NCBI GenBank assembly: GCA_951406725.2
Contig: OX597825.1
Span: 75,330,001-75,394,000 of the forward strand
DNA: 64,000 bases
Direction: 5' to 3'
Origin: Octopus vulgaris
Lineage: Eukaryota
The position numbers were made by a program, and so were the translations under genes. This document shows, piece by piece, positions 2,013 through 62,287 of this stretch. The notes under the pieces were generated by a model. That model was not told the DNA's origin and did not search any database. It saw only the letters and a list, made by a program, of their open reading frames with translations. The first letter of the stretch is position 1; each line of letters begins with the position of its first letter.

Positions 2013-5000
2013 AGAGTTGGGCCTCACAGAGGCAAAGTGGCTGAGTTTCTTTTATGAGTTGGGCCTCACAGAGGCAAAGTGGCTGAGTTTCTTTTCGAGT
2101 AGGGCCTCACAGACGCAAAGTGGCTGAGTTTCTTTTAGAGTTGGGCTTCACAGAGGCAAAGTGGCTGAGTTCCCTCTAAGAGTTGGGCCTCACAGATGCA
2201 AAGTGGCTGAGTTTCTTTAATGAGTTCGACCTCACAGAGGCAAAGTGGCTGAGTTTCTTTAATGAGTTGGACCTCACAGAGGCAAAGTGGCTGAGTTTCT
2301 TTTATGTGTTGGGCCTCACAGAGGCAAAGTGGCTGAGTTTCTTTAATGAGTTCGTCATCACAGAGGCAAAGTGGCTGAGTTTCTTTTATGAGTTGGGCCT
2401 CACAGAGGCAAAGTGGCTGAGTTTCTGTAATAAGTTGGGCCTCACAGAGGCAAACTGGCTGAGTTTCTTTTATGAGTTGGGCCTCACAGACGCAAAGTGG
2501 CTGAGTTTCTTTTAGAGTTGGGCTTCACAGAGGCAAAGTGGCTGAGTTCCCTCTAAGAGTTGGGCCTCACAGATGCAAAGTGGCTGAGTTTCTTTAATGA
2601 GTTCGACCTCACAGAGGCAAAGTGGCTGAGTTTCTTTTAATGAGTTGGACCTCACAGAGGCAAAGTGGCTGAGTTTCTTTTATGGGTTGGGCCTCACAGA
2701 GGCAAAGTGGCTGAGTTTCTTTAATGAGTTCGGTCTCACAGAGGCAAAGTGGCTGAGTTTCTTTTATGAGTTGGGCCTCACAGAGGCAAACTGGCTGAGT
2801 TTCTGTAATAAGTTGGGCCTCACAGAGGCAAAGTGGCTGAGTTTCTTTTATGAGTTGGGCCTCACAGAGGCAAAGTGGCTGAGTTTCTTTTATGAGTTGG
2901 GCCTCACAGAGGCAAAGTGGCTGAGTTTCTTTTAAGAGTTGGGCCTCACAGAGGCAAAGTGGCTGAGTTTCTTTTAGAGTTGGGCCTCACAGAGGCAAAG
3001 TGGCTGAGTTTCTTTTATGAGTTGGGCCTCACAGAGGCAAAGTGGCTGAGTTTCTTTTAAGAGTTGGGCCTCACAGAGGCAAAGTGGCTGAGTTTCTTTA
3101 ATGAGTTGGGCCTCACAGAGGCAAAGCAGCTGAGTTTCTTTTAAGAGTTGGGCCTCACAGAGGCAAAGTGGCTGAGGTTCTTTTATGAGTTGGGCCTCAC
3201 AGAGGCAAAGTGGCTGAGTTTCTTTTCGAGTTGGGCCTCACAGATGCAAAGTGGCTGAGTTTCTTTTAGAGTTGGGCCTCACAGAGGCAAAGTGGCTGAG
3301 CTCCCTCTAAGAGTTGGGCCTCACAGAGGCAAAGTGGCTGAGTTTCTTTAATGTGTTCGACCTCACAGAGGCAAAGTGGCTGAGTTTCTTTAATGAGTTG
3401 GACCTCACAGAGGCAAAGTGGCTGAGTTTCTTTATGGGTTGGGCCTCACAGAGGCAAAGTGGCTGAGTTTCTTTAATGAGTTCGGCCTCACAGAGGCAAA
3501 GTGGCTGAGTTTCTTTTATGAGTTGGGCCTCACAGAGGCAAAGTGGCTGAGTTTCTGTATAAGTTGGGCCTCACAGAGGCAAACTGGCTGAGTTTCTTTT
3601 ATGAGTTGGGCCTCACAGACGCAAAGTGGCTGAGTTTCTTTTAGAGTTGGGCTTCACAGAGGCAAAGTGGCTGAGCTCCCTCTAAGAGTTGGGCCTCGCA
3701 GAGGCAAAGTGGCTGAGTTTCTTTAATGTGTTCGACCTCACAGAGGCAAAGTGGCTGAGTTTCTTTTAATGAGTTGGACCTCACAGAGGCAAAGTGGCTG
3801 AGTTTCTTTTATGGGTTGGGCCTCACAGAGGCAAAGTGGCTGAGTTTCTTTTATGAGTTGGGCCTCACAGAGGCAAAGTGGCTGAGTTTCTTTAATGAGT
3901 TGGGCCTCACAGAGGCAAAGTGGCTGAGTTTCTTTAATGAGTTGGGCCTCACAGAGGCAAAGTGGCTGAGTTTCTTTTATGAGTTGGGCCTCACAGAGGC
4001 AAAGTGGCTGAGTTTCTTTTATGAGTTGGGCCTCACAGAGGCAAAGTGGCTGAGTTTCTTTTAGAGTTGGGCCTCACAGAGGCAAAGTGGCTGAGTTTCT
4101 TTTAAGAGTTGGGCCTCACAGAGGCAAAGTGGCTGAGGTTCTTTTATGAGTTGGGCCTCACAGAGGCAAAGTAGCTGAGTTTCTTTTAGAGTTGGGCCTC
4201 ACAGAGGCAAAGTGGCTGAGTTTCTTTTAAGAGTTGGGCCTCACAGAGGCAAAGTGGCTGAGTTTCTTTTAAGAGTTGGGCCTCACAGAGGCAAAGTGGC
4301 TGAGTTTCTTTTAAGAGTTGGGCCTCACAGAGGCAAAGTGGCTGAGGTTCTTTTATGAGTTGGGCCTCACAGAGGCAAAGTGGCTGAGTTTCTTTTCGAG
4401 TTGGGCCTCACAGATGCAAAGTGGCTGAGTTTCTTTTAGAGTTGGGCCTCACAGAGGCAAAGTGGCTGAGTTCCCTCTAAGAGTTGGGCCTCACAGATGC
4501 AAAGTGGCTGAGTTTCTTTAATGAGTTCGACCTCACAGAGGCAAAGTGGCTGAGTTTCTTTTAATGAGTTGGACCTCACAGAGGCAAAGTGGCTGAGTTT
4601 CTTTTATGGGTTGGGCCTCACAGAGGCAAAGTGGCTGAGTTTCTTTAATGAGTTCGGCCTCACAGAGGCAAAGTGGCTGAGTTCCTTTTAAGAGTTGGGC
4701 CTCACAGAGGCAAAGTGGCTGAGTTTCTGTAATAAGTTGGGCCTCACAGAGGCAAACTGGCTGAGTTTCTTTTATGAGTTGGGCCTCACAGAGGCAAAGT
4801 GGCTGAGTTTCTTTTAAGAGTTGGGCCTCACAGAGGCAAAGTGGCTGAGTTCCTTTTAAGAGTTGGGCCTCACAGAAGCAAAGTGGCTGAGTTTCTTTTA
4901 TGAGTTGGGCCTCACAGAGGCAAAGTGGCTGAGTTCATTTTAAGAGTTGGGCCTCACAGAGGCAAAGTGGCTGAGTTTCTTTTAAGAGTTGGGCCTCACA

Positions 5001-5298
5001 GAGGCAAAGTGGCTGAGTTTCTTTAATGAGTTGGGCCTCACAGAGGCAAAGTAGCTGAGTTTCTTTAAGAGTTGGGCCTCACAGAGGCAAAGTGGCTGAG
5101 GTTCTTTTATGAGTTGGGCCTCACAGAGGCAAAGTGGCTGAGTTTCTTTTAAGAGTTGGGCCTCACAGAGGCAAAGTAGCTAAGTTCCTTTAAGAGTTGG
5201 GCCTCACAGAGGCAAAGTGGCTGAGTTCCTTATAAGAGTTGGGCCTCACAGAGGCTGAGTTCCTTTTGAGTGTCAGGCCTCACAGAGGCAAAGTACTG
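2013..5298. repeat. 42-bp minisatellite array (~78 units), with ~4 outlying units at 1536-1763
   Basis: Unit GAGTTGGGCCTCACAGAGGCAAAGTGGCTGAGTTTCTTTTAT (41-43 bp) repeated head-to-tail; the ELGLTEAKWLSFFY ORFs are a by-product. Confidence 0.98.
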
Positions 5299-19720: not shown

Positions 19721-22700
19721 GGTCCATGTTCCTATTCTGACTTGGTGCTGCACTATGTTTTTTATCAACAGTTAGTTTACTATGAAGTCTTATAAGCTAA
19801 CTGATGTTAATAGCAAAGAGGGTAGAGTACTAGATGAGTTTTGAAAGGGGTTGATAATAATTCTTTAATTTTGAAACATGGTCAGTAATTTTCTAGGAAA
19901 ACAAGAAAATCAAATACATCACAAAGCTTCGGTTGACTCTGGGCTATAGTGGAAGACACCTGCCCAAAGTGCCACGCAGTGGGACTGAACCCGAAACCAT
20001 GTAGCTAGGAAGCAAGCTCCCTAACCACACAGCCATACTTTATTCTATTGACCCCGAAAGAACAAAATTTGAACACACAACATAATTCCAGATTAAATGC
20101 CACTAAGCATTTCGACCGATGTGCAAGTGACCTTTTCCACCTCGCTGCCTTGGCAGTGTTAATAACAATGGTTTCAGATTGCGGCAAAAGACTGGCAGTT
20201 TTGTGGGGAGTGGGTAAGTCAATTAATAGGGAGCTCAGTACTCAACTGGTACTTATTTTATTAATTCAGAAAGGATGAAAGGGGAAGTGACCGTGGCAGC
20301 AATTGCTGTGATTGTGTCCTGCTATTGATGTAGATAAGAATGCTTATTGTCATCAGAAAACCATATGAGAGGTTCTCTCATGGTAACTGTCACAGTATTC
20401 TCTGTTCCAACACAACATCCAGAACAAATATCACAATGCACTTTTTAGATGCTCTAACAGTTCTGTCAGCTTGTTACTTTAGACAAGGATGAGAGTAGTA
20501 AAAAGAATATGAGGGATTTGGCTATTGTGTTGCATTTCTAGAATGATGGCACACTCCCGAGAGTAAACAGTTTTATAGTCTTCTCTTGAAGTAAGATGAC
20601 ATTCTTATCTCATTTACCAGTGACATGATAAGCTTTATTCTTTTTTAGATGAAAAGAAAAGTAGACCCTCTTTCTCTCTCTTTCTCTCTATCCATCCTCT
20701 CTCTGTCCAGTGTAAACATTGATATGTTTGGTAAGACAACCTTGGGATCACAGAATACTATAAGAATGGATTTTACTATTCTACTACCAAGCAAAAAAAG
20801 CATAAAGAACAATTCTACACCATTCAATACATGTCAGTCACACTTAATTATAATAGATACAACACAAAAAGTCAGACTGGAATAAATATGGATACAGCAG
20901 ATATAAAACACAAAACCTGTTACAAAATGGATAAAATGTCATCCGACTTTGAATCAGAAACTGAACATAGGAGAGATTTAAAGGTTAGACCAATAGCTTT
21001 ATGTAATCTACAATGAATGATTGAATAAAAGATTAGCTCTGCTTGTGCCCTAATTCTTTATTGTTGTTGTTGTAAAAAAACTCACAGCTTATTTGGCCGG
21101 GTATGATGGAAAGTGTCAGCTGCCAACAGCCAGCAGACTAAGGCAACACTTGTTTTACTGGTCATGGTTCAAGAACCCTGCAAAGAATTCTTGTAGTTCC
21201 AAGCGATGTTGATCTTTGTAGGTATTCTACTTTCACACTTGCTCCGATCTTTTTCAGTCATGCTGGTAGTTGTTGAGTGCTGATACTTCCAAGTGCACCG
21301 ATTACTATTGGTATCACGTCTACTCTCCCTATTGACCACAACCTTTGTATTTCCCACTTTAAATCATCATAGTTGTTTATTTTTTCCTTCTTTCACACTG
21401 ACCCTGTTGTCACCGGGGCATGCTATATTGATTACCATATATGTTCTTCATTTTTATTCACCACAACAATGTCTGGTCAGTTATCATTATTATTATTGCA
21501 ATGTATAAATGATTATTTATTTTGCATATTCTACATAATTTGGTCAGTTGACTACAACATAGCATATTATTGTATATGTAAGAAGTTTGTATGTAATCAT
21601 TATTTCATAATGATTATTTTTTATTTGCCTTTTTTTTTTGGTAAGCTGCTTCTTCTTTGAGGAGGTACCTTGATCTGTAATGTGTAATGCATTTAGATTG
21701 TCAAGAACATAAATATAATTATAATACATGAATTTGAGAGACTTAAAATAGCAATAAAATAAATAGCCTTTCCTTATACAGGGTGGACCAAAATGATCTG
21801 ACACATTTGGAGGCTTAATAAAAGCACAAAATAAGAAATAATGAAAAGAAAAATTTTATTTTCTGAATGTACATATAATGCCATTTTATTTCATTAAGTT
21901 TTAAAAATTAAAATGCTACTCCCTTGGCAATATACACCCGTCCCTTAGCTTCCCATTTGGCTATCTGATACATTCTCCTGTTAACCCCACTCTTCCAGGT
22001 GTTCCATGCCTGTTTCTTAGCTCTGATGGCCCCGTCTATAGTACTGACATACTTCTATCTTACTTCTTGCACACACAACATTTCTATTCATTTTCACTCA
22101 AATATCTCTATAATCTCACCAGGCCTACTTTCTAATTGTATCGAAACACACGCACACAAATACACACATGCCCTTCCTTATTCCAACCACTAGCCTGAAA
22201 ATATGTGATGATTAGTGAGATGAAGAACATCGGTGTGTAGAAAAATCTACCTCAATGAATCCCCTCTTGCTCATAAAGCATGGAAAAGTGGATGTAAAAA
22301 TAAAGATAATGATGTATGTATGCACATATGTATGTATGTATGTTTGTATGCATGTATGTATGTATGTATGAGCATACGTACATATGTATGTGTGCATGTA
22401 TGTGCTGACATACTTATAAAATGGTGAATTGTACTTCTATTTTACAAAATTAGATGGTTTACAAAACAATGATCCATTGAGATTTGTTAAGCAGATTTTT
22501 GTATGTAACATTTGAAATGCTAATGAGTTGTTTTGACCCCAAAAGGATTTCGTTTTTATCAAAGTGCATTAAATTTCCATGTTGATATATTGTCCAGGAC
22601 ACAGTTTATAAATATTTTCACAATGTTTTTTGTTTTATCTTTCAAATTCTGATGTTATCATTTGTTTTTTTCTGCAAAGTAAGGATAATGTCTGCATCTC

Positions 22701-23261
22701 TGGGAGGCCTTTCCAGACAAATGGAACAATTCAGATGAAGTCTACTTTGAACTTTTGCAGGAGATGAAATAAGGAAAGTTTGAGACATTACATACATGTA
22801 GCTCAGGGGTACAAGGATTGGGTAAATTATTTAGTAGAATTCTAACCCTAATTTAGTAGATCAAATGAAACAAAAGGAGTGACAAAGAAAAGCAAAGGTA
22901 AGTGTCTTGAGTGGTATACAATTAACAAATTTAGAGAAGCAGTGACTGTTTGAAAAACGTTCAAAGAGTGTGGGGAGAGAATATTCGTGGATTAGTAATT
23001 GTGGGATTATGCTGGTTTCAAATTTTGGTACAAGGCCAGCAATTTTGGGGGAGGAAACAAGTTGATTACATTGACTCCAGTGTTCAACTGACATTTATTT
23101 TATCAACCCCAAAAGGATGAAAGCAAAGTCAACCTTGACAGAATTTGAACTCAGAACATAGTCAGACAAAATGCTGCCAAGTGTGTAAATGGTTCTGTGA
23201 GCTTGCTGCCTTTTTGTGGCACTATATTTTTAATTAAATATTTCACTGATTTCTCCCTCAG

Positions 23262-23585
23262 GTGTCCGTCTTTGTGAGTAGAAAAATCAACCTCCATGAA
23301 TCCTCTCTTGCTTATAAAGCATGGAAAAGTGGATGTAAAACTAAAGATAATGATGTATATATGTATGCATATATGTATATATGTATGTATGTATGTTTGT
23401 ATGCATGTATGTATGTATGTATGATACATGTATGTATGTATGTATACATGTATGTATACTCACAAAGCTCACGTGTATTGGACTGAAGTGGAGTCTTCTG
23501 ACAGTGACGAAAGTATTTTCACCACAAAGCAATTTCACAGCTCATGACAAATATTTAAATAACACTGCCAACCTTTATGGCTCAA
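23262..23585 (+). pseudogene. pseudo-exon 2 of an alpha-arrestin paralog
   Basis: Acceptor ...ccctcAG|GTGTCCGTCT as in exon 2; ~190-bp insertion (23272-23464); then KAHVYWTEVESSDSDESIFTTK, frameshift, NFTAHDKYLNNTANLYGS|gt. Confidence 0.85.
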
Positions 23586-24076
23586 GTAGGCTCGTATTAT
23601 GTGAAACTATGTCATGCCTGAATACACCCACACAAACATTCTTCTATACGTGTACACACACACACATAAGTTTGCACATGCAGACACACATAAACCTTTC
23701 ATTTTTGCAAACCTCTCCCATTTTATTTCATCATAAATATATTGTTGTTATTTAACCACAGGTCTGCCTTTAGTAAACAAATTTATGATCGAAAGCATTC
23801 CAGCCATGACTGTCACATCTTCTTTTTTTCAGAAATTGTACATCTAAGACTACATCTATGTTATCGACTATGTCCTTCCTTCTTTGAAACAGTAGGGTAT
23901 GATTTAAATGAGATTCGGTTGCCATTTCTTGCAAGCTGACTGACCACATAGAGGGTTTCTTAGTAACTCATATAAGAATATTCTTTAGCTTTGTTGTTAA
24001 AAAGGTGTTTTGGTTATAACCACTAAAATGAACTTAACTGTTAATACCTGAAGGATTAAGATTTTTGTGTTGTTAA

Positions 24077-24291
24077 CCCTTTCGTTACCAACCCAGCTAA
24101 AACCGGCTCTGTAGTACAAATGTCTTGTTCTCATAAGTTCTGAATTAAAATCTTCCACCAAACCTTTAGTCACAATTAATGTTCCTAACACTAGCTTAAT
24201 GATAACTAAGTTATTTACTAAATTCTTTGTTATATTTAAAGTAACTGAGAGAGACACAGATTATCTCAAAATAAATACATTAATGAAAGGG
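24077..24291. mobile_element. piggyBac-type MITE (TTAA-CCC...GGG-TTAA); copies at ~34767-34990, 55600-57791 (split by LINE), ~60200-60421
   Basis: TTAA flanks; TIR CCCTTTCGTTAC / GTAACGAAAGGG in better-preserved copies. Confidence 0.8.
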
Positions 24292-25309
24292 TTAAACACG
24301 ATTCCCTGGAGAAATACCATTGGTCAAAACATAAAGCCAGTTTTTATTTTTGTAGTTTTTCTGTTCTGTTCAGCATAAAACTAATATTGATTTTAAATTT
24401 TAGCATAAGTCTTGCAAGTTTGGGAGAATGGTCAAATCAGTTACATCAATCCCTGTACACAACTATTTATTATTTTATTGACCCCAAAATGATAAAAGGC
24501 AAGGTCAGCCTTGGTGGAATTTGAACTCAAGATGTAAAGACAGATGAAATGTTGCTAAGCATTTTGCCTGGTTACGAATGATTCTGCCAACTCACCACCT
24601 TAAGCAATATCACTAATATTACAAACTGAACCCAAATCTTTATTCACATTTTTCTCTGTACTCTCTCTTTCTTTGTACTTGCTCTTCCCCAACCTTCTCT
24701 ATTCCACTCTGTCTCTCTCTTTCTTTACTTTTTGGTACCAAAAGACCATCCAATTTTTTATCACTCATCTTTTTTCTACTTGACCAGAGCGTAGGTAAGA
24801 CATGTATTTTGTTTCATCTCCTACCTAGTACTCACTTCAGATCCCCAGTTTACCTTTTCACTTTTCATTCTTTTCTTTCCTTCTAACTTCCTTCCCTCTA
24901 CCCCATCTCTCTATCCTTCTCCTGAGCCTTCTCATTGTACTTTTGGAACACAAGCACCACTATTTTCTTCCTTTTTTGTTCATTTTCATCATGTAGTGTT
25001 CCACATTTTGAAATACTTGCAATTTGTATTTTTACTGTTTATGTTTGTTTCACTTGATATATTTCCAAAATTAAACATTTTAATATATAAAATATATTTC
25101 ACGTAAAAAGCACCCACTACACTCACAGAGTGGTTGGCGTTAGGAAGGGCATCCAGCTATAGAAACATTGCCAGATAAGACTGGAGCCTGGTGCAGCCTT
25201 CTGGCTTCCCAGATCCCCGGTCGAACTGTCCAACCCATGCTAGCATGGAGAACGGACGTTAAACGATGATGATGATGATGATGATGACATCACATTATTA
25301 CATATACTA

Positions 25310-34096: not shown

Positions 34097-34152
34097 TATA
34101 TATATATAAATATATATATATATTGATATATATATATATAATATATATATAT

Positions 34153-34385
34153 ATTGATAGATATGGTAAGACAACAAAAGAATGAAAGACACCTCCATAT
34201 TATGTAAATAGAGGAATTTATCTGTAAATGTAATATGTAACAATTATTCGGTAGTCATGATAACTCGAAGTTTTATCATGACTACCGAATAATTGTCACC
34301 TGTTACATTTACAGATAAATTCCTCTATTTACATAATATGGAGGTGTCTTTCATTCTTTTGTTGTCTTATCATTTTTATCAATAT
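34153..34385. repeat. ~110-bp-arm near-perfect hairpin next to (TA)n tract 33945-34150
   Basis: AAGACAACAAAAGAATGAAAGACACCTCCATATTATG...GTCATGATAA loop TTATCATGAC...CATAATATGGAGGTGTCTTTCATTCTTTTGTTGTCTT. Confidence 0.93.
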
Positions 34386-35681
34386 ATATATATTATAACT
34401 ATACAAACACAAACACACACACACACACACACACCAGTGTTGCTGTGCAGGTGCAAATATAGCTGTGTGGTCAGAAGCTTGCTTCCTTATTCCTAACCAC
34501 ATTGTTCTGGGTTCAGTCCTGCCATGTGGCATCTTGGTCAAGTATCTTTTACTACAACCTTAGTCCAATCAAAGCCTTGTGAGTAGATTTGGTACACAGA
34601 AACTGAAAGAAACCTGTCATATATGTGTATGTGTGTGCGTATGTGTATGTACTACCAGACAGGCCAGAGGGAACTAACAGGGCTGCCTATTACTTCCGTT
34701 TGACCTGTCTAGTAGTAGAGATAAAGCTTGTGAATGAGTTCCATCACAAATGACCTTGATAATTTAACCCTTTCATTATCAACCCGGCTGAAACCGGCTC
34801 TGGCTCTTTAGTATAAATGTCTTGTTTTCATAAGTTTTGAATTCAAATCTTCCACCAAATCTTAGTTAAAATTTATGTTCCTAAAACTAGCTTAATGATA
34901 ACGAAGTTAATTTACTAAATTCTTTGTTATATTTAAAATAATTGAAAGAAACACAGAGCATCTCAAAATAAATACAGTAACGAAAGGGTTGATCTGACCA
35001 CAAATCATTTTCTTACCACTTATCAGTAGACAATAAGCAACTCCTTGATAGATAAATCCCAGAAAATGCTTTCTCTATTGTTAGAAGTGGGGATAATTGG
35101 GTCACTGGAGGTCACTTATTCCTTTCCCACCCCTACTAAAAACCTGACTAACCTCTAAATTTCTTTGATCTGATTAAATGTACATTGTTTTAATAAATCC
35201 ATTCTGTCAACTGAAATAGTTGCAGAATCAGTGAAACTGTTTTGCTCCATGGATTTTAAAATATGTTAAATCATTTGGAATGTCATTAATTGTCAAGTTC
35301 ATACATTCATTTGAGGAAAACGGTTTCTTTATAATGATATAGTGTACCCATTAATCAATTAAAGGAGATGTTAGAAACGGCTGTAATGAATTGACACCAA
35401 TTCTTTAACTGTTACTTATTTACGTGCATATATACATACATACATATATATATAATACATGGAGGTTATGAGAGGTAATGGTGTCAGTAAGACCCAAAGG
35501 TGTCAGGTAATGCTGAGTAAGTTCTATGGACAGACTACAGTTAAGCTCCAGGTTCGGTGATTATGCGAATAAGGAGTCCAACGTAGGTCATATAACAGCA
35601 TGTATATATATAAAAAAAAATGTTCAGAATGAAATAAAAAACAAAGGCTGTGAAGATTTTAGAACATTTATAAATAGAAGG

Positions 35682-38105: not shown

Positions 38106-40064
38106 GCGCGTTATACAAATAATCAGTTGCTGGAACTCCGTGTGCTTAGATTTTGCAGTAAACCAGTACAAAGTGCAAAATCAATTGATAAATGAATAAC
38201 GAAAGAATTGTGGCTATTGTCTCCCCTGCACTGTTTCTCATTGTCCAGGTGCTATCCTATTGGGACCAGACTATAAAGGATAGCAGACCAATAGATATAC
38301 AGACAGGAGGGGTACCTAATACAAGTGCCACTAACAAAGGTAATAGTAGTAAGGATAGAAATCTCTGTAATTGTGGTAAAAATAAAATTTGTCCCTTAAA
38401 TACACCATGTTTCAGGAAGAATTTAGTATAGGCGCAGGAGGGGCTGTGTGGTAAGTAGCTTGCTTACCAACCACATGATTCCTAACACCAACCACTCCAA
38501 GAGTGCAGTGGATGCTTTTATGGGCCACTGGCACAAGGGCCAGTCAGATGGTACGTCTGCCGTTTCGTTGTGAGTTCAAATTCCGCCGAGGTCGACTTTA
38601 CCTTTCATCCTTTCGGAGTCGATAAATTAAGTACCAGTTACGCACTGGGGTCGATGTAATCGACTTAATACCTATGTCTGTCCTTGTTTGTCCTCTCTAT
38701 GTTTAGCCCCTTGTGGGTAATAAAGAAATAGGTACTGGCAATGACCATGCTCAAAAGGTGGGGTTTTTTAACGTTCCACCTGCATGGGAGCCAGTCTGGC
38801 GGCACTGGCAACGACCATGCTCGAATGTTGTTTTTCACGTTCCACTGGCACATGTGCCAGTAAAGCGACGCTGGCAATGATCACACTTGAATGGTACTTT
38901 TTATATGCCACCGGCCCTGGTAACGATCATGCTTGGATGGTGCGTTTAACGTTCCGCTGGCACGAGTGCCAATCAGGCGGTACTGTCATTGGCCACGTCA
39001 GCGATTTTGATTTCACTTCGCAAGCAGTTTATTGTCTAATGAATGAAGGATACTCATAAATGGGCTGGGTATACACCACTGGCTTAGGCCACGAATTATG
39101 GTCTCACTTGGCTTGTCGGGTCTTCTCAAGCACAGCATATCTCCAAAGGTCTCGGTCACTAGTCCTTACCTCGGTGACGCCCAATGTTTGAAGGTCGTGC
39201 TTCACCACCTCATCGCAGGTCTTCCTGGGTCTACCTCTTCCACGTGTATAATAAACACAAATGATACAATTATGGCTAACAATCATAGTTAACAACAATA
39301 CATGGGAAATAACTCTTCTATTCCTCCTTGGAAATGCTATAATTATTCACTATTTTTCACTGTTCTGTTCTTTTTTCTTTTTTACTGGCACTGAGTTAAA
39401 CACTGTCCGTATATACTTCCACCATAAATATTACCAAGGGCAATACATCGACCCCAGTGCGTAACTAGTACTTATTAATCGACTCCGGAAGGATGAAAGG
39501 CAAAGACGACCTTGGCGGAATTTTACTCAAAACGTAACGGCAGACGAAATGCCGCTAAGCATTTTGCCCGGCGTGCTAACGATTCTGCCAACTCGCCGCT
39601 GTTAGACAACAAATACTGGCTGTCAATTTCACTTTTCATTACCACATGAGGATAAAATTAACTCACAAATGGCTCAGTACTCCACAGACATGCACAACAT
39701 TAATATAGTTCTCAGGGAGATTCAGCCTCACACAGAATATAACAAGGCTGGGCCCTTTGAATTACAGCTACAACTTGAGACATATATATATATATATATA
39801 TATATAGTATTTGTGTGTGTGTGTATAGTTTAGGTTAGTTAAAACATATTTGCAATAATAAGTTTCGCGTGGTGGAAATAAATTCAATTACCAAACTTTC
39901 ATTCATAAATCTATTTATTATTTCGTTTTTTTTCCGTTTCAATTTGTACACTTGTACCCAGAAGTTTTCAACAACTGCACGCCAGAAGAAATGGAAAAAA
40001 TGAGTAATTCTGACTGTCTTGTTATAAATGAAAAAGTATATTATACCGTCTCCAACGTATGATA

Positions 40065-40109
40065 CACACGGACTCGAGTTTCTGGGTATTGACCCGTCAT
40101 CGGTGTGTG
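40065..40109 (-). ncRNA. minimal Penelope-type hammerhead motif (left arm of foldback)
   Basis: Minus: CACACA CCGATGA C GGGT caat ACCC A GAAA CTCGAG TC CGTGTG; palindromic ACTCGAGT stem III; GUC triplet. Confidence 0.7.
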
Positions 40110-40114
40110 ACAAT

Positions 40115-40159
40115 CACACGCCAATGACGGGTCAATACCCAGAAACTCAAGTCCGTGTG
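40115..40159 (+). ncRNA. minimal Penelope-type hammerhead motif (right arm of foldback)
   Basis: Plus: CACACG CCAATGA C GGGT caat ACCC A GAAA CTCAAG TC CGTGTG; perfect 6-bp stem I, two CpG-type lesions. Confidence 0.65.
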
Positions 40160-40379
40160 TATCATAAGTTGGACACGGGAAGGATGGCTTCCCTCTGCAA
40201 ATACTGATAGGTCACAGAAAGTGTGTCTATAGCCAGCTGGAGGAGGTGTCCTCCTGGGGCTACAAACTACAGTAGCATCCACCCTTAGGGGTTAGCCATA
40301 TTTAAATGGCAAATATACGTCATGATGTATTGCAGCTACTGTTTATAACTCGCTCTAAGATTTATTATATATTATACCA

Positions 40380-43331: not shown

Positions 43332-43449
43332 ATGGGGAAGCTAAGAAGTCTAACGATCCATTTTAACAATCCATCGCGAGTTTATTACGGTGGTCAGAAG
43401 TTGAGTGGACTTGTACAAATTATACTGAATGAACCTATGAAAGCGCGAG
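43332..43449 (+). CDS. ARRDC: alpha-arrestin (arrestin domain-containing protein) coding exon 1
   Basis: MGKLRSLTIHFNNPSRVYYGGQKLSGLVQIILNEPMKAR, an Arrestin_N start; G|GTAAGT donor, phase 1; joins exon 2 in frame. Not in the ORF track. Confidence 0.9.
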
Positions 43450-49260: not shown

Positions 49261-50531
49261 AAAATGAGGAATGTTCATCCAATTGAAAACAGATGCAAAC
49301 TGTGAACTAAACGGAGACACTTTGGTCCATATTTCTGTTATACCTTTTGCTACCAACCCACCTAGGACCATTTCTGGTTCTATGATACAAACTTCCAGTT
49401 GTCCAGTTGCTCTGTATTTTATCTCACACGCATACACCCTTGTTTGTACACACATACACATTTATTGACCTGAAAAAGATAAAAGACAAAGTTGAACTGG
49501 TTAGGATTTGAACTCAGAATGCAGAGAGTAAAAACATACCATAATATTTTCTATTCAATGTTCTAATAATTTTGCCAGTTTCACACCATAAAATAAAACC
49601 TTGGGCCTGGTGCAGCCTTCGGGCTTCCCAGACCCCAGTTGAACCATCCAACCCATGCTAGCATGGAAAGCGGACTTAAACGATGATGATGATGATGATG
49701 ATTATGATGATAATAAGCGTGGCATGATATGATATGATGATAATAAGTATGACATTTATCACCATTTGAATGTGACATTTATCACCACCTAAATAGCCCA
49801 CATGACACCAGTACCTGATCAGGCCCTGTGCTTTTATGTATATTGATAATGGAGTAGTTGCTTCTTTTCCCTGTGGTCAGGCATCTGCCATTGACAGGGC
49901 CATGGACAGCCAAAATGGTGTGAGCTGGAAGTCTTGGTGGCAGCAATTGCTGTGATTGTCTCCTGCTATTGATGTAGATAAGAATGCTTATTGTCATCAG
50001 AAAACCATATGAGAGGTTCTCTCATGGTAACTGTCACAGTATTCTCTGTTCCAACACAACATCCAGAAGAAATATAACAATGCACTTTTCAGATGCTCTA
50101 ACAGTTCTGTCAGCTTGTTACTTTAGACAAGCATGAGAGTAATAAAAAGAATATGAGGGATTTGGCTATTGTGTTGCATTTCTAGAATGATGGCACACTC
50201 CCAAGAGTAAACAGTTTTATAGTCTTCTCTTGAAGTAAGATGACATTCTTATCTCATTTACCAGTGACATGATAAGCTTTATTCTTTTTTAGATGAAAAG
50301 AAAAGTAGACCCTCTTTCTCTCTCTCTCCCTCTATCCATCCTCTCTCTGTCCAGTGTAAACATTGATATTTATGGTAAGACAACCTTGGGGTCACAGAAT
50401 ACTATAAGAATGGATTTTACTATTCTACTACCAAGCAAAAAAAGCATAAAGAACAATTCTACACCATTCAATAAATGTCAGTCACACTTAATTATAATAG
50501 ATACAACACAAAAAATCATACTGGAATAAAA

Positions 50532-52782: not shown

Positions 52783-53442
52783 AATATATTTTATTATAAA
52801 TGAACTTGATATTCTTTTTACTTTACATAAAATATTCTTTACATTCTATTGGTATTTTATTGTGATTTATTTGCGAGTATTATAAATTTTATCAGTGAAA
52901 TATTTTTCTGGGAACAAATTATATATAGCATTGCGTGATGAGTTTGAGAACAAATTAACTTGTATATCACGGCATTTAGAGAAACAATGACTGTTTGAAA
53001 AACGTTCGAAGAGTGTGGGGGAGAGAATATTCATGGATTAGTAATTGTGGGATTATGCCGGTTTCAAATTTTGGTACAAGGCCAGCAATTTTTTTGTGGG
53101 GAAACAAGTTGATTACATCGACTCCAGTGTTCAACTCACATTTATTTTATCAACCCCAAAGGATGAAAGCAAAGTCGACCTCAGCAGAATTTGAACACAG
53201 AACATAATCATAGAAAATATTGCCAGCATGCTGCCTTCTTGTGGACTGTATGTGAGGAATATTGAGATGAGGAACATCAGTGTATAGAAAAAACCTACCT
53301 CCATAAATTCCCTTTGGCCCATGAAGCATGGAAAAGTAGATGAGAAAATGAGGATAATGATGTATGCATGCATGCATGTATGTATGTATGTTTGTATGTC
53401 TATATGTATGCACTGATATACTTATAAAATGATTAATTGTAC

Positions 53443-53850: not shown

Positions 53851-54944
53851 TTCTATTTTACAAAATTAAATAATTTACAAAACAAAGATCCATTGAGATT
53901 TGTTAAGCAGATTTTTGTATGTAACATTTGAACTGCTAATGAATTGTTTTGATCTGAAAAGGATTTCATTTTTATCAAAGTCCATTAAATTTCCATGTTG
54001 ATATATTGTCCAGGCCACAGTTTATAAATATTTTCACAATGTTTTACCTTTCAAATCTTGATGTTATTATTGAGAATATTTCACTTTTTTTTTTTCTTTG
54101 TCTGCAAAGTAAGGATAGGAGTCCTTTCCAGGGTAGTGGAAACAATTCAGTTTATGTCTAGTTTGAACTTTTGTAGGAGATGGAATAGGGAAATAGGGGG
54201 TTCAAGGATTGGGTAAACTATTTAGTGGAATCCTAACCGTAATTTAGTAGATCAAATGAAACAAAAGGAGTGAGAAAGAAAAGCAAAGGTAAGTGCCTTG
54301 AGTGGTATACAGTTAACAAATTTAGAGAAACAGTGACTGTTTGAAAAACGTTCAAAGAGTGTGGGGAGAGAATATTCATGGATTAGTAATTGTGGGATTA
54401 TGCTGGTTTCAAATTTTGGTACAAGGCCAGCAATACTTTTTTGGGGGTGGGGGACAAGTTGATTACATCGACTCCAGTTTTCAACTCACATTTATTTTAT
54501 CAACGCCAAAGGATGAAAGCAAAGTCGACCTCAGCAGAATTTGAACACAGAACATAATCATAGAAAATATTGCCAGCTTGCTGCCTTCTTGTAGACTATA
54601 TTTTTAATTAGATATTTTTAATTAGGCGGCAAGCTGGCAGAAACGTTAGCACGCCGGGCGACATGCTTTGCAGTATTTCATCTGCCGTAACGTTCTGGGT
54701 TCAGATTCCGCCGAGGTCGGCTTTGCCTTTCATCCTTTCGGGATCAATAAATAAAGTACCAGTTTCGCACTGGGGGGTCGATGTAATTGACTTAATCCCT
54801 TTGTCTGTCCTTGCTTGTCCCCTCTATGTTTAGCCCCTTGTGGGCAATAAAGAAATATCATGCTAGCATGGAAAACGGACGCTAAATGATGATGATGATG
54901 ATGATGATATTTTTAATTAGATATGTTACTGATTTCTTCCTTAG

Positions 54945-55091
54945 GTGTCCGTCTGGAGATAAAAGGAGAAGCTCAAGTCTATTGGAGTGAAACTCGGACT
55001 ACTGGAACTGGTAAAAACTCAAGCACCACAACGGATCATTACTCAGCCAAAGAGAAGTATTTTGATTATTCTGTCGTCCTCTATGGCTCAG
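54945..55091 (+). CDS. ARRDC: alpha-arrestin exon 2
   Basis: ttAG|(G)VRLEIKGEAQVYWSETRTTGTGKNSSTTTDHYSAKEKYFDYSVVLYGS|GTaaat; 147 nt, phase 1 to 1. Confidence 0.93.
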
Positions 55092-55751
55092 GTAAATTTC
55101 CATTATGTGAAACTATGTACATGTTGAATACATTCACACAGACATGCATCCAAACACACACACATATGTACGAACGTGCGCACACACACACAAGTTTGCA
55201 CATGCAGACACACATAAACCTTTCACTTTTGCAAACCTCTCCCATTTTATTTCATCATAAATATATTGCTGTTATTTAACCACAGGTCAGTCTTCAGTAA
55301 ACAAATTTATGATCAAAAGCATTCCAGCCATGACTGTCACATCTTCTTTTTTTCAGAAATAGTACTTCTAAGACTACATCTATGTTATCAACTATGTCCT
55401 TCCTTCTTTGAGACAGTAGGGTATGATTTAAATGAGATTTGGTTGCCATTTCTTGCAAGCTGACTGACCACATAGAGGGTTTCTTAATAACTCATATAAG
55501 AATATTTTTTAGCTTTGCTGTAAAAAGGTGTTTTGGTTATAACCACTAAAATGAACATAACTGTTAATACTTGAAGGATTAAGATTTTTGTGTTGTTAAC
55601 CCTTTCGTTACCAACCCAGCTCTGGCTCTGTAGTACAAATGCTTTGTTTGCATAAGTTCTGAATTAAAATCTTCCACCAAACCTTTAGTCACAATTAATG
55701 TTCCTAACACTAGCTTAAAAATAACTAAGTTATTTGCTAAATTCTTTGTTA

Positions 55752-57729
55752 AAAAAAAAAAGTGCAATAGGTCAGCCAACCACCTCAAGCAGGTGACAAA
55801 AAAGGCAGTGGTTGAATTTAAACAATGCATTGCAGCTAATCCTGACAGCAAAGTGTTCTGGAAGTATGTGCACTCAAAGCAGAGACCCCACTCTCCAGTT
55901 GATCCCCTTCGCAATCCCCACACAGGACAGATTACTGGCAATCCTGAAGAATGTGCAGAAATCATTGCTGGATGCTATGCCGGCGTCTTTACTGTCGAAG
56001 ACCAAAATGTTCCATCTTCATCACCACTGACATCGGACTCTATATCTACTATGCAATTTACATCAGCAATGCTGCAATGCCACCTTAAGAATAAACGCAA
56101 TTATGCCTCTCCTGGTCTCGATGGTGTTACATACCTACTTCTCAAACACGGTGGGTACTTTCTTCTAAGCCAACTTTCTCTATTCTTCCAATTCTGTCTT
56201 GACAATGGTGTTACTCCAGAACAGTGGAAAACTGCCAGTGTCATCCCTCAGTTCAAAAAAGGCGACCGCACATCGCCTGTCAACTATCGCCCTGTCAGTC
56301 TTACTAGCTGCATCGCCAAACTGATGGAATCCTGTATCAGAGAAACCCTCTGGAACTTCTGGAAGTCTCACAGCCTCATCCAGCCGTTACAATTTGGATT
56401 TATTCCTAACTCCAGCTGCTGTAATCAACTCATCGAGTTTCTTGAGGACGTTACCCAAATCACTGATCACAGATCCTGGGTGGATGTTGTTTACCTGGAC
56501 TTTGCTAAGGCTTTTAACTCTGTGCCACACAAAAGACTTATGGTGAAGCTTTCTGCGTTGGGTGTAAGAGACAAACTCTATAACTGGTTGAAGTCCTTTA
56601 TTTTTGGCCGAAAAGAGGTTGTCACAGTTCTAGGACAGTACTCTTTGCCCTATGAGATGACATCTGGTGTACCACAGGGATCTGTTCGTGGCCCCCTTTT
56701 ATTTGTTGCATATGTTAATGACATAGATGCCAACTTAAAGAATGCCACAGTTCTGAAATATGCAGATGACATCAAGCTGTACCTTGAAATAAAGAGGTCA
56801 AATCCTGTACACTATAGATCCCTATTGCAAGCAGACCTGGACACCATGCAGCAGTGGATCATGGACTGGCAACTCAAGCTGGCTGTGGACAAATGTACCA
56901 CCATGCATTTTGGGAAGAGAAACCCAGCGTCCACCTACTCCCTCCACAACACTAGTCTCAAAAAGTCTTCATGTGAACGTGACCTGGGTGTTATTGTCGA
57001 CAGTGATTTGCGTTGGACAAAACACATCGCTAAAATTGTCAAGAAGGCTGAGGGTGTCTTGGCATCACTCACCAAATCCTTTGTGAGCCGCTCTCCGGCT
57101 ATCTATCTGCGGCTTTATATAGCTATGGTAAGACCTCACCTGGAATTTGCATCACCGGTCTGGAACCCCTATCTTGCCCAGGATATCAATCGTCTGGAAG
57201 CCGTTCAGCAACGTGCAACCAAAAGAATACCCTCAATCAGGCATTTGCCATATCCTGAACACCTTACTTCCCTGGGCATGGACACATTGAAACTCCGACG
57301 TTTGGCAGCTGACTTGGCAGACACCCATAAAATTATCAACCATCGTACAAACAATAACTCTGAGCACCTTTTCAAACTCCATCCATCTAAAACCCGTGGA
57401 CATATTTACAAAGTCAGAAAACAGCACAGCTCCCATGACTTTAGGAAACATTTTTTCACACTGAGAGTTGCTGAAGCATGGAACAAACTGCCGGCATCAG
57501 TTGTTAGTTGTCGGAGCACTGCATCCTTCAAAACTTCCATGCTTTCTGAGATTCGCCAACACTACACTTGATTTTCTCCCCTCCATACACACGCAAGCAT
57601 GTATCTGACTCATACATTGTTCGCTTTCCAGACATTTTTACATTACTGCATGTACTTTATATACACTTTCTGACAAGTTGTGGTGCACCTGAGCACTGTA
57701 TACAATAATTTCATTATTATTATTATTAT
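55752..57729 (+). mobile_element. 5'-truncated CR1-like LINE in intron 2, inserted into a piggyBac-type MITE
   Basis: RT ORF, 3' UTR and (ATT)n tail; MITE halves on both sides; empty site at ~24230. Confidence 0.95.
55793..57571 (+). CDS. LINE ORF2 reverse transcriptase (592 aa, uninterrupted, no endonuclease, no true start)
   Basis: NYRPVSLTS, YLDFAKAFNSVPH, GVPQGSVRGPLLF, YADDIKL, ERDLGV, VRPHLEFASPVWNP motifs of CR1/jockey-group RTs. Confidence 0.93.
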   Translation: MTKKAVVEFKQCIAANPDSKVFWKYVHSKQRPHSPVDPLRNPHTGQITGNPEECAEIIAGCYAGVFTVEDQNVPSSSPLTSDSISTMQFTSAMLQCHLKNKRNYASPGLDGVTYLLLKHGGYFLLSQLSLFFQFCLDNGVTPEQWKTASVIPQFKKGDRTSPVNYRPVSLTSCIAKLMESCIRETLWNFWKSHSLIQPLQFGFIPNSSCCNQLIEFLEDVTQITDHRSWVDVVYLDFAKAFNSVPHKRLMVKLSALGVRDKLYNWLKSFIFGRKEVVTVLGQYSLPYEMTSGVPQGSVRGPLLFVAYVNDIDANLKNATVLKYADDIKLYLEIKRSNPVHYRSLLQADLDTMQQWIMDWQLKLAVDKCTTMHFGKRNPASTYSLHNTSLKKSSCERDLGVIVDSDLRWTKHIAKIVKKAEGVLASLTKSFVSRSPAIYLRLYIAMVRPHLEFASPVWNPYLAQDINRLEAVQQRATKRIPSIRHLPYPEHLTSLGMDTLKLRRLAADLADTHKIINHRTNNNSEHLFKLHPSKTRGHIYKVRKQHSSHDFRKHFFTLRVAEAWNKLPASVVSCRSTASFKTSMLSEIRQHYT

Positions 57730-59929: not shown

Positions 59930-60156
59930 GTCCAGTTATGGGAGCTAATCAAGTGTTATTGAATTGCGGAGAGCATCACTATCCTTTTGAGTTTGTGCTT
60001 CCATACAATATTCCATCGTCATATGAAGGAGGAACCGGATATGTAAGATACTATGCAAAAGCTGTTATAGATAAGCCTTGGAAATTTGACCATAAGTGCA
60101 AAATTCCGTTCACTATAATTTCTGTTTTGGATCTAAACCTGACACCAAATGCATTG
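59930..60156 (+). CDS. ARRDC: alpha-arrestin exon 3
   Basis: tgtAG|(G)PVMGANQVLLNCGEHHYPFEFVLPYNIPSSYEGGTGYVRYYAKAVIDKPWKFDHKCKIPFTIISVLDLNLTPNAL|GTaagt; F.F.LP..PSS.EG..G.VRY arrestin motif; phase 1 to 0. Confidence 0.96.
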
Positions 60157-60502
60157 GTAAGTACTTATCATCATCATAATCATCATCATCCTTAACCCTT
60201 AACCCTTTTGTTACCAACTCGGCTGAAACCGGCTCTGGCTCTGTAGTACAAATGCTTTGTTTGCATAAGTTCTGAATTAAGATCTTCCATCAAACCTTTA
60301 GTCACAATTAATGTTCCTAACACTAGCTTAATGATCACTAAGTTATTTTACTAAATTCTTTGTTATATTTAAAATAATTGAGAGGAAAACATCTCAAAAT
60401 AAATACAGTAACGGAAGGGTTTATGATGAAACATATTGAATATAGTTACTTACTTGTTTTTCTTCTTTCTCTTTGATTTTTTTTGTTTATTTTTTTTTTC
60501 AG

Positions 60503-60685
60503 CAACCACTCCAACAGCAAGGGACCAAGCATTTCTGCTGCTATTGCTGCAAGTCCGGACCATTGAGTGCTCACGTGAATTTATATCGGACGGGTTACGT
60601 AAGTGGAGAGCAAATTTATATCAATGCTGAGATATGTAACATGTCAAACCGAGATATAACCCATTCAAAAGCATCCCTAGACATG
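60503..60685 (+). CDS. ARRDC: alpha-arrestin exon 4 (start of Arrestin_C)
   Basis: ttcAG|QPLQQQGTKHFCCYCCKSGPLSAHVNLYRTGYVSGEQIYINAEICNMSNRDITHSKASLDM|GTgagt; 183 nt, phase 0. Confidence 0.95.
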
Positions 60686-60742
60686 GTGAGTGAACAGTTT
60701 TATCAGCTTCACCTTATTTTATGTCTGTGTGTGTCAGTGCAT

Positions 60743-60808
<66 letters not shown>

Positions 60809-61034
60809 TGTTTGTGTCAGATTAAAGTGATCATCAAATGGCATCACATGATATTATACAATACCCCTAGATGAAGGTGTTTGTGTGGCAAAGAAGTTCA
60901 CTTTCCACCCATATGGTTCTGGGTTCATTCCTACTGCATGGATCCTTGGGTAAGTGTCATTTGCTACAGCCTTAGGCTGACCAAAGCCTTGTGAGTGTGT
61001 GTGTATATATATAAAGACTCTCAGAATGAAATAT

Positions 61035-61425
61035 AGATTGTATGATGCTTGTGTACGAATGGCCATACTCTCTGATAGTGAGACATGGGCTCTGAATGCA
61101 GAGGACATGCATAGACTGGAGAGGAATGAGGGTCATATGCTCCACTGGATGTGCAACCTCAGTGTGCATGAATGACTAAGCGCAACTGTGGTGAGAGAAA
61201 AGTTGGGCATAAGAGGAATTAAATGTGGCATGCAGGAGAGGAGAATGCTTTGGTTTGGACATGTGATGCATTTGACTGAAGGCAGCTGTATAAAGAAGTG
61301 TTGGTCACTGAAAATGGATGGTACTTGTGGAAGAGAGAGTCCCAGGAAGACGGGGGTGAGGACTGATTTCAGGATGTTGTGGCTCATGGAGAAAATGACA
61401 ATGGATCGAGATACGAGATTCTAGA
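61035..61425 (+). mobile_element. RTE LINE 3'-end fossil
   Basis: LYDACVR...SETWALNAEDMHRLERNE...REKLGIRGIKCGMQERRMLWFGHV. Confidence 0.85.
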
Positions 61426-62104
61426 GAAGATCTCAGCAAAACTGAGTTCTAGAAGATTTGTTCCCCCCTGCATGTAAGAATAAAATTTTCACACACCCTA
61501 CCCCAAGAAACTAAACTACATCTCCTCTTTTAAACCACGTTTTTTTCCTTCTTTACATTTCCTCTGGGTAACTCTGTATCTCCTCTACAGTAGCTCATCT
61601 GTTTCTGCCCTCATTCTTGATCACTCTATCTTTCTCTCATTCTTCCTTCTGGCTAGGTAACCAAGTATCTCCTTTACATCAGCACACCTGTCTCTGTCCT
61701 CTTTCTTGTTACCTCTCTCTCTCTTTCTGAGGCTGGGTAACCATGTTCCTCCTCTATAGCAAAACACCTGTTTCTGCTTCTCTGACTCTCTCTCTATCAC
61801 CCCCTAACCTTTCATCATCTGACGCAAAATCATCTCCTTTAATGCCTACTCTCCTCTCAATATTCCTTCTTTCAGTTTCCTTTTACCAAATCCACTCACA
61901 AGGTTTTGGTTGGCCCAGATCTATAATAGAAGACACTTGCACAAGGTACCTGGCAGTGGGACTGAACCTGAAACCATGTGCTTGGAAAGCAAACTTCTTA
62001 CCACACAACCAAACCTGCACATTATATATTCCAAATAATTACCATATTAATTAAGATATAAATTATCATTTTAAAATATGTTCTATCTTTCTAACCCTCT
62101 GCAG

Positions 62105-62287
62105 ATTATTTCTTTCCATGCAACGACTAAAACAACAACTGGGCATAAAAACATCACATCTGTAACGCAAGGAGGTATTCCGCCTGGGGAAAGCGATTAT
62201 TGGAATCAAGTTGCTCTTCTTATCCCACCATTGCCACCATCCAATCTGATGTACTGTAAGATTATTGACATAAAATATATATTGACG
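62105..62287 (+). CDS. ARRDC: alpha-arrestin exon 5 (gene continues beyond window)
   Basis: tgcAG|IISFHATTKTTTGHKNITSVTQGGIPPGESDYWNQVALLIPPLPPSNLMYCKIIDIKYILT|GTaagt; L.IPPLPPS...C.II.I.Y motif; 183 nt. Confidence 0.95.

Follow-up and report, generated by a model that had tools for sequence, protein, structure and literature searches.

In passages of PMC3924837 that deal with the primate red/green opsins and with the model that Teshima and Innan (2008) proposed for a 'peak of divergence', the introns of these genes are described as homogenised and one exon as left diverged. For the Tigriopus paralogs GOT1p1/GOT1p2 and GOT1Sd/GOT1Sr, the relevant sections of PMC3728101 describe exonic divergence islands, polymorphic conversion haplotypes and one decaying copy, and the same parts of both papers state that indels and clustered differences can stop conversion. 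Pseudogenes retained as conversion donors have been described for the MHC and for plant R genes (Takuno et al. 2008, as cited in sections of PMC3924837). With respect to the protein family concerned here, excerpts of PMC10398895 and PMC12213294 describe a PPxY motif in the tail as a feature of alpha-arrestins, and a finger-loop region.

The octopus alpha-arrestin (ARRDC) cluster contains three homologous copies inside ~110 kb, of which genes B and C are intact and copy A is a 4.3-kb fragment. The case is a new instance of a known process, the opsin-type 'peak of divergence', and since the process is already known the gain is modest. As in the primate opsins, in the description referred to above, neighbouring duplicates are under conversion, their introns are more alike than one exon, and this exon groups by paralog and other regions by species (here for B and C, at the protein level). 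Unlike the opsins as described there, the octopus locus has three copies, one direct and one inverted, and its deepest island lies in a dead fragment. Like the Tigriopus GOT1 paralogs, as the cited sections present them, these are invertebrate duplicates with an exonic island, conversion haplotypes and a decaying copy; in the decaying Tigriopus pair, however, the intron is diverged and the exons are alike, and the dead octopus copy A shows the reverse. The non-functional A also resembles the donor pseudogenes of the cited account, standing beside functional B and C with signs of exchange, but, unlike for MHC and R genes, there is no evidence for favoured B/C diversity or for A as donor. Literature on octopus arrestin-domain duplication and on cephalopod concerted evolution contained no paper on the locus among the matches listed.

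The window is the whole stretch of DNA that was analysed, 64,000 nucleotides long (G000:C12:75330001-75394000), and positions below refer to it unless prefixed. Gene B, an alpha-arrestin with seven exons, is read from the plus strand, and its exons are identical in reading to P0006 (labelled Octopus vulgaris). The coding part of its exon 1 (43332-43448, located by tblastn), exon 2 (54945-55091, 147 nt, symmetric with phase 1-1) and exons 3-5 (59930-62287) lie in the window, and exons 6-7 beyond its end. Gene C is intact, on the minus strand and head-to-head with B; its exon 2 (G000:C12:75301042-75301185) lies upstream of the window and was 65% identical to that of B in a genome protein search. 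Copy A (20283-24621, plus strand) sits between B and C in the orientation of B, at a direct spacing of 31 kb from B. It is an orphaned piece of an ARRDC paralog, comprising part of intron 1, a broken exon 2 and part of intron 2, in blocks colinear with B and C. A profile-HMM scan from window position -5800 to 43300 gave exon 2 of A as the sole match, with no significant match for exon 1 or exons 3-7.

Copy A opens with an intron 1 block (20293-20886) that is 97.5% identical to B 49937-50530 (15 differences in 594), and the end of intron 1 with the acceptor (23004-23261) is nearest to C, not B. Intron 2 from 23668 to 24621 is homogenised with B (96%, 95% and 91% in three blocks) and includes a MITE-like repeat, which is common to A and B and absent at the matching place in C; of 282 genomic candidates for this repeat 40 were scored, and only three of these were near-full copies. 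Other intron segments of A are common with C and missing from B (87% and 73% identity). Independent transposon copies were considered as the source of the A, B and C flanks and rejected, as other genomic matches were partial (68-92%) and, among the candidates scored (40 out of 282 in one search, 40 out of 598 in another), only A, B and C matched at length.

Exon 2 of A starts at 23262 with a short 5' piece (23262-23273, codons V-R-L after a split Gly codon). It is interrupted by an insert of ~190 bp (23274-23463), which replaces about 12 exon bases, and continues as a diverged remainder with an acidic loop (23464-23585), in which a 2-nt deletion near 23530-23536 and a stop at 23545-23547 are found. 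Its donor has a G-to-A change at position -1. The reading frame is not intact, owing to insert, deletion and stop, and copy A is a pseudogene fragment of the alpha-arrestin family. Self-BLAST traced the insert to an intron 1 element 1 kb upstream (22233-22403, a unique part plus a TATG microsatellite), to which it is 73/79 identical in the unique part (23274-23352). Since insert and template differ at 6 of 79 positions, vs 33% in the exon, the insert looks younger than the island of divergence described below, although template and insert could themselves have been converted. By one of these six differences GTGTGT has become GTGAGT, which matches the splice donor consensus and lies at the first base of the insert (23274). 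An AG at the far end of the insert (23466-23467) would bring the two parts of the exon back together in frame as far as the 2-nt deletion, with five codons fewer. This donor-like change may be due to chance, or the insert was possibly rescued for a short time by being spliced out.

Copy A had been taken in the earlier note for a diverged arrestin paralog. The family holds, and can be specified further. On P0002, P0004 and P0005 the B and C proteins carry Arrestin_N (PF00339) and Arrestin_C (PF02752) domains, PF00339 also matches at exon 3 of B and C, and both have a PPAY motif in the last exon, in the C-terminal tail. Among sequences of solved structures, TXNIP (E=1.9e-29), ARRD-6 (1.1e-24) and the N-lobe of ARRDC3 (4e-23) were the best matches, and matches to beta-arrestins were weak (E about 3e-4 vs 1e-29 for TXNIP). 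Judged by these matches, B and C are alpha-arrestins (ARRDC) and not visual/beta-arrestins, and one of the two paralogs, C, lies outside the window. Human ARRDC3, TXNIP and C. elegans ARRD-6 are like B and C, with their PPAY tails, in sequence, and ARRD-6 also in fold; compared with these proteins, B and C are an octopus-lineage pair, and A, with only exon 2 and flanks, cannot code for the protein.

The AlphaFold2 model of the C-type protein P0004 (mean pLDDT 86.8) had C. elegans ARRD-6 as its best fold match (7usy_J, Z 25.8, rmsd 4.0, 340 aligned), and exon 2 forms one long predicted beta-hairpin in it, with strands 40-59 and 66-87. From the strand order and the topology of beta-arrestins, this hairpin would be the finger-loop hairpin of arrestins, which would make cargo recognition a likely target of selection. 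The net charge of the hairpin stretch was +3 in each of the three C proteins, whereas the B proteins ranged from 0 to -3; over a stretch of 17 residues it was -4 in A, +1 in B and +2 in C.

The exon remainder of A was identical to exon 2 of B at 79 of 122 aligned bases, and a codon alignment including the three 5' codons gave 82/123. Overall the two exons were 65-67% identical, vs 82.6-97.5% for the intron blocks, in agreement with the earlier note, which had put the exon at ~63% and the introns at ~90% or more. Its count of 78/123 was close to both of ours. To be corrected is the extent of the exon, which starts at 23262 and is split by the insert and the 2-nt deletion. The synonymous pairs listed there (GTG/GTC, GCT/GCC, AAA/AAG, CTT/CTC) and the loop change from TRTTGTGKNSS to VESSDSDESIF were all present in the alignment. 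When all nine A-B intron and acceptor blocks were pooled (2288/2468, 92.7%), the exon differed from them with a Fisher P of 1.8e-17, which speaks against the similar divergence of exon and intron that the note had named as fatal to its claim. Near-identity of the introns from ~23670 was likewise seen, with 393/409 identical (96.1%) between 23668-24077 and B 55192-55600, but it was uneven, ranging from 82.6% to 97.5% over eight intron blocks without the shoulder (chi-square P=1e-9). Nor is the contrast limited to the exon, as had been thought: the first 60 bp of intron 2 were identical to B at only 42 positions (70%), and the island thus extends into non-coding DNA. It is ~200 bp long, sharply bounded, and takes in ~80 bp of intron 2 (the shoulder, 23586-23667).

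Silent and replacement changes were compared over the 41 codons of exon 2 that could be aligned. For A-B, pS was 0.363 (10.2 of 28 sites) and pN 0.325 (dS 0.50, dN 0.43); for A-C, pS was 0.405 and pN 0.27 (dS 0.58, dN 0.34); and for B-C, pS was 0.20 and pN 0.19. The A-B differences were spread evenly over the codon positions (14/12/15). The flanking introns had a JC distance of 0.04, and in intron 2 the shoulder differed at 18 of 60 positions vs 16 of 409 just beyond. Synonymous A-B divergence was well above the intron average (P=2e-5), and barely above the most diverged intron block (P=0.04). Over these 41 codons, neither A-B nor A-C combined a dN/dS in excess of 1 with a dS as low as that of the neutral flanks. 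Since silent and intronic divergence equals replacement divergence, an old unconverted tract is indicated and not codon-level positive selection. The narrow peak (~200 bp) thus carries linked silent and intronic sites (pS 0.36, shoulder 70%). Rapid diversifying selection alone, one of the options put forward earlier together with a dN/dS comparison, was not supported by that comparison: dN was not above dS (0.43 vs 0.50, A-B), codon positions were even and the island enters the intron. Positive selection alone was rejected on the closeness of pS to pN and on the diverged intronic shoulder.

As a crude neutral yardstick, an intron piece that is translated in P0009 differed from A at 5 of 32 residues, and A from C at one; on this rough scale the island would predate the species split and the best-matching flanks would be younger. 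The first 60 residues of P0009, an O. bimaculoides model, are translated intron 1 sequence, homologous to window 20888-20983 and about 22680, and the N-terminus of the model is therefore probably wrong.

A three-way alignment of A, B and C gave 310 variable sites, at which the odd copy was counted per region. C was odd far upstream (35 sites vs 7 for A and 2 for B) and in intron 2 past the shoulder (50 vs 7 and 4). Over 23004-23232, B was odd at 19 of 196 sites, A at 1 and C at 6, and all differed at 3. In exon 2, A was odd at 23 sites vs 11 and 7 for the others (all different at 8), and in the shoulder at 13 of 71 sites vs 7 and 8. The earlier note had suggested a search for conversion tracts, and by permutation A=B tracts were supported at 20293-20886 (P=0.0004) and in intron 2 from 23668 (P=0.003), and an A=C tract before the acceptor at 23004-23261 (P=0.0002); for a B=C tract over the 3' end of the exon the outcome depended on the penalty used (P=0.01 with one, 0.11 with the second). 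The introns of A form a mosaic in which some tracts are B-like and others C-like, at different levels of identity, and conversion would be the cause of it. One contig from one study, X5 (depth 6; 23141-23271), has A-type diagnostic flank letters running into a C-type start of exon 2, a haplotype absent from the assembly. Exact A/C runs beyond its diagnostic letters were at most 21 bp, too short for a chimera in a 31-mer graph, and a chimera is thus unlikely. Conversion between the copies is indicated by the tract tests, by the mosaic contig and by the species-wise grouping of exons 3-7 in B and C.

This grouping was seen in B- and C-type proteins of O. sinensis (P0002, P0004) and O. bimaculoides (P0008/P0009, P0005/P0010), whose presence in both species places the B/C duplication before those splits. 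In exon 2, eight sites grouped these proteins by paralog and none by species, vs three and ten, respectively, in exons 3-7 (P=0.001); the count was made without exon 1, which the O. bimaculoides B model lacks. B-C pS was 0.22 in exon 2 and, over the other six exon blocks, 0.043, and the B/C exon 2 pair has no indel between the copies. Exon 2 thus also forms a divergence island between the living genes B and C.

Placing A itself among these sequences gave a less definite picture. No intact A-type protein was found among 120 listed of 126 P0002 matches or among eight octopus cluster members, and a 40-residue query from the open frame of A gave no candidate, in itself a weak negative. As no A ortholog was found in another species, an old paralog lacks cross-species support. 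The best exon 2 protein tree (26 rows) nests A in B on a branch of 0.86, with weak support, and an AU test rejected none of four placements. Of nine residues that B or C gained once O. bimaculoides had split off, A carries four, where 0.88 would be expected (P=0.006; post hoc, with one outgroup species), so that either the exon was not completely sealed or A is younger than assumed. This sharing fits short exchanges within the exon, a younger chimeric origin, or convergence.

Because conversion into a dead exon is neutral, the island in A requires either selection on A or a barrier. The insert would act as such a barrier, but looks much younger than the island. The retained VYW.E, KY and LYGS, which had been read as signs of constraint, do not carry that reading: 17 identical residues were seen in exon 2, with 17.0 expected under random change (P=0.59). 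Neither the BLOSUM nor the identity null gave significance (P=0.05-0.59), and neutral change would leave the exon free of stops with a probability of 0.23-0.31. On a family profile built from up to 114 non-octopus homologs, the one test with a signal of past constraint, A scored 54.7, B 92.9 and C 103.7, and 8 of 94 real homologs scored under A. In a neutral null started from C, 37 changes gave a mean of -14.7 and 0 of 5000 replicates reached the score of A, with P=0.002 at 30 changes, 0.016 at 25, 0.10 at 20 and 0.41 at 15. The profile score suggests that constraint acted during part of the divergence of A, either along the branch of A itself or along the stem leading to B and C; as the test was not significant at 20 or fewer neutral changes, A may have died early. 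Near-invariant residues were lost in A (E76D, with E in 110 of 111 homologs; T69K; F79L), and part of its divergence looks like decay. Acidic loops are also normal among intact homologs, with a net charge of -3 or lower in 26 of 98, the value in A being -4. With its residues partly family-like, A was probably functional during the divergence, and is now broken by insert and frameshift.

An assembly artefact, with B falsely duplicated or one of its haplotypes left uncollapsed as A, is suggested by flanks 96-97.5% identical to B, 31 kb apart and in direct orientation. The earlier note had likewise allowed for a misassembled haplotype. The A-specific stretch was, however, present in 6 of 24 listed runs, and contigs of X1, a possible source sample, and of runs X2-X6 were compared (no X6 contig was placed on A). 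In X1, where A-type and B-type intron contigs stood side by side, the depth was 31.5 for the contig of the A exon and 35.7 for a C-specific one. In X2 (23460-23743, one other letter) and X3 (23480-23791, no other letters), both from other studies, a contig runs from the A exon through the frameshift into B-like intron, the letters spanning the frameshift being identical in X1, X2 and X3. The 5' junction of the insert was bridged by contigs of X1 and X4, the latter with no other letters, and both X4 and X5 have contigs with the 3' portion of the A exon; no contig joining across the whole ~190-bp insert was found among those listed. No RNA run was among those listed with the A-specific stretch; X5 as RNA is a guess, and its contigs cover introns. 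Since A is carried by contigs from other studies it is not an assembly artefact, a reading that we find hardly credible.

We consider it probable, though well short of certain, that A is a broken third alpha-arrestin paralog and that exon 2 with ~80 bp of intron is an old island, kept by selection against conversion during the overwriting of its flanks. The introns around exon 2 would have been replaced through conversion with B and C, and selection would have rejected conversion over the exon and the adjoining ~80 bp of intron, preserving the old divergence. For part of that time A would have coded for a working protein with an acidic hairpin loop; insert, frameshift and loss of the other exons would have come later, and the island may persist now because 65-70% identity and the insert leave too little for conversion to cross. 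An old diverged paralog with converted introns and a protected exon was also among the options of the earlier note, and of these it is the best supported. An unlikely alternative is that A is a younger duplicate, or a B/C chimera, formed after the O. bimaculoides split, and that its exon 2 then changed fast under positive or relaxed selection before dying. Consistent with a young copy, the best tree nests A in B on a very long branch, A has four of the nine post-split residues of B or C, the MITE-like repeat of intron 2 is common to A and B but not C, and no A-type protein is among the listed octopus cluster members. Selection on the protein would, however, leave the divergence at silent sites and in 80 bp of intron unexplained (dN 0.43 vs dS 0.50), A keeps C-shared intron segments missing from B (87%, 73%), and A-B intron identity is too uneven for a single recent event.

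The island might also be mechanical in origin, A having died early, with a local difference blocking conversion, so that the exon was left to neutral drift as its flanks were being overwritten. We judge this quite improbable, since the sole large indel looks younger than the island and lies at its 5' edge, A is close to C right up to the insert, exon 2 is also an island in the intact pair B/C without any indel, and 25 or more neutral changes are rejected. It would account for a pN close to pS, even codon positions and an amino-acid identity at the neutral expectation; the profile score is compatible with 8-20 neutral changes if the exon was C-like at the start, and indels and clustered differences are described as conversion stops in the sections of PMC3924837 and PMC3728101 cited above. 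An exon swap, also proposed earlier, would have a recent B copy take exon 2 and the 3' shoulder from a fourth, more diverged paralog, now lost or missing from the assembly. The sharply bounded tract of ~200 bp with intron sequence, and a symmetric exon of phase 1-1, would suit such an event. DNA and protein searches, with the best candidates scored, nevertheless found no donor exon in the genome, and a donor would need B-like flanks and hence carry the same island, which moves the problem back one step; we regard a swap as very unlikely.

The locus amounts to a natural mapping experiment, in which conversion erased most differences between ARRDC paralogs except in one exon. Exon 2 stands out on two occasions, first between the living genes B and C, in more than one species, and again in dead copy A, and its hairpin is likely to be the cargo-specificity element of these alpha-arrestins. 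An island can outlive its gene, which cautions against taking an exon more diverged than its introns as current positive selection. More speculatively, exon 2, a single symmetric exon coding for a single hairpin, could be a swappable specificity cassette of three charge types (C basic, B neutral to acidic, A strongly acidic) in an otherwise homogenised gene, with dead A still supplying the B and C hairpins with short tracts; we give this little credence, and if true it would be MHC-like diversification from a donor pseudogene in an intracellular trafficking adaptor.

A few further features of the locus were recorded. The MITE-like repeat, uninterrupted in A, is split in intron 2 of B by a retroelement-like insertion (55752-57721), with which a 645-codon open stretch (55634-57568) goes. 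A copy of 54320-54601 (94%) at 52974-53251 is fused to the intron 1 element that templated the insert in A, and this element has been touched by two separate rearrangements. Exon 6 of B contains a GYAPQY-type repeat of nine residues (G000:C12, about 75395190-75395420) with three more units than P0002, which adds tyrosine-rich sequence to the tail; C has a single motif of this type. The last exon of B with ~3 kb around it is 95% identical to inverted C (approximately 75396700-75399760 vs 75290370-75293450 on G000:C12), with zero coding differences in the exon 7 block. Elsewhere in the window, a tandem array occupies 2014-5255 (42-bp unit, 77.5 copies, 92% matches), and two stretches at 34131-34403 (273 bp) and 40046-40178 (133 bp) are ~90% self-complementary and are probably foldback elements.
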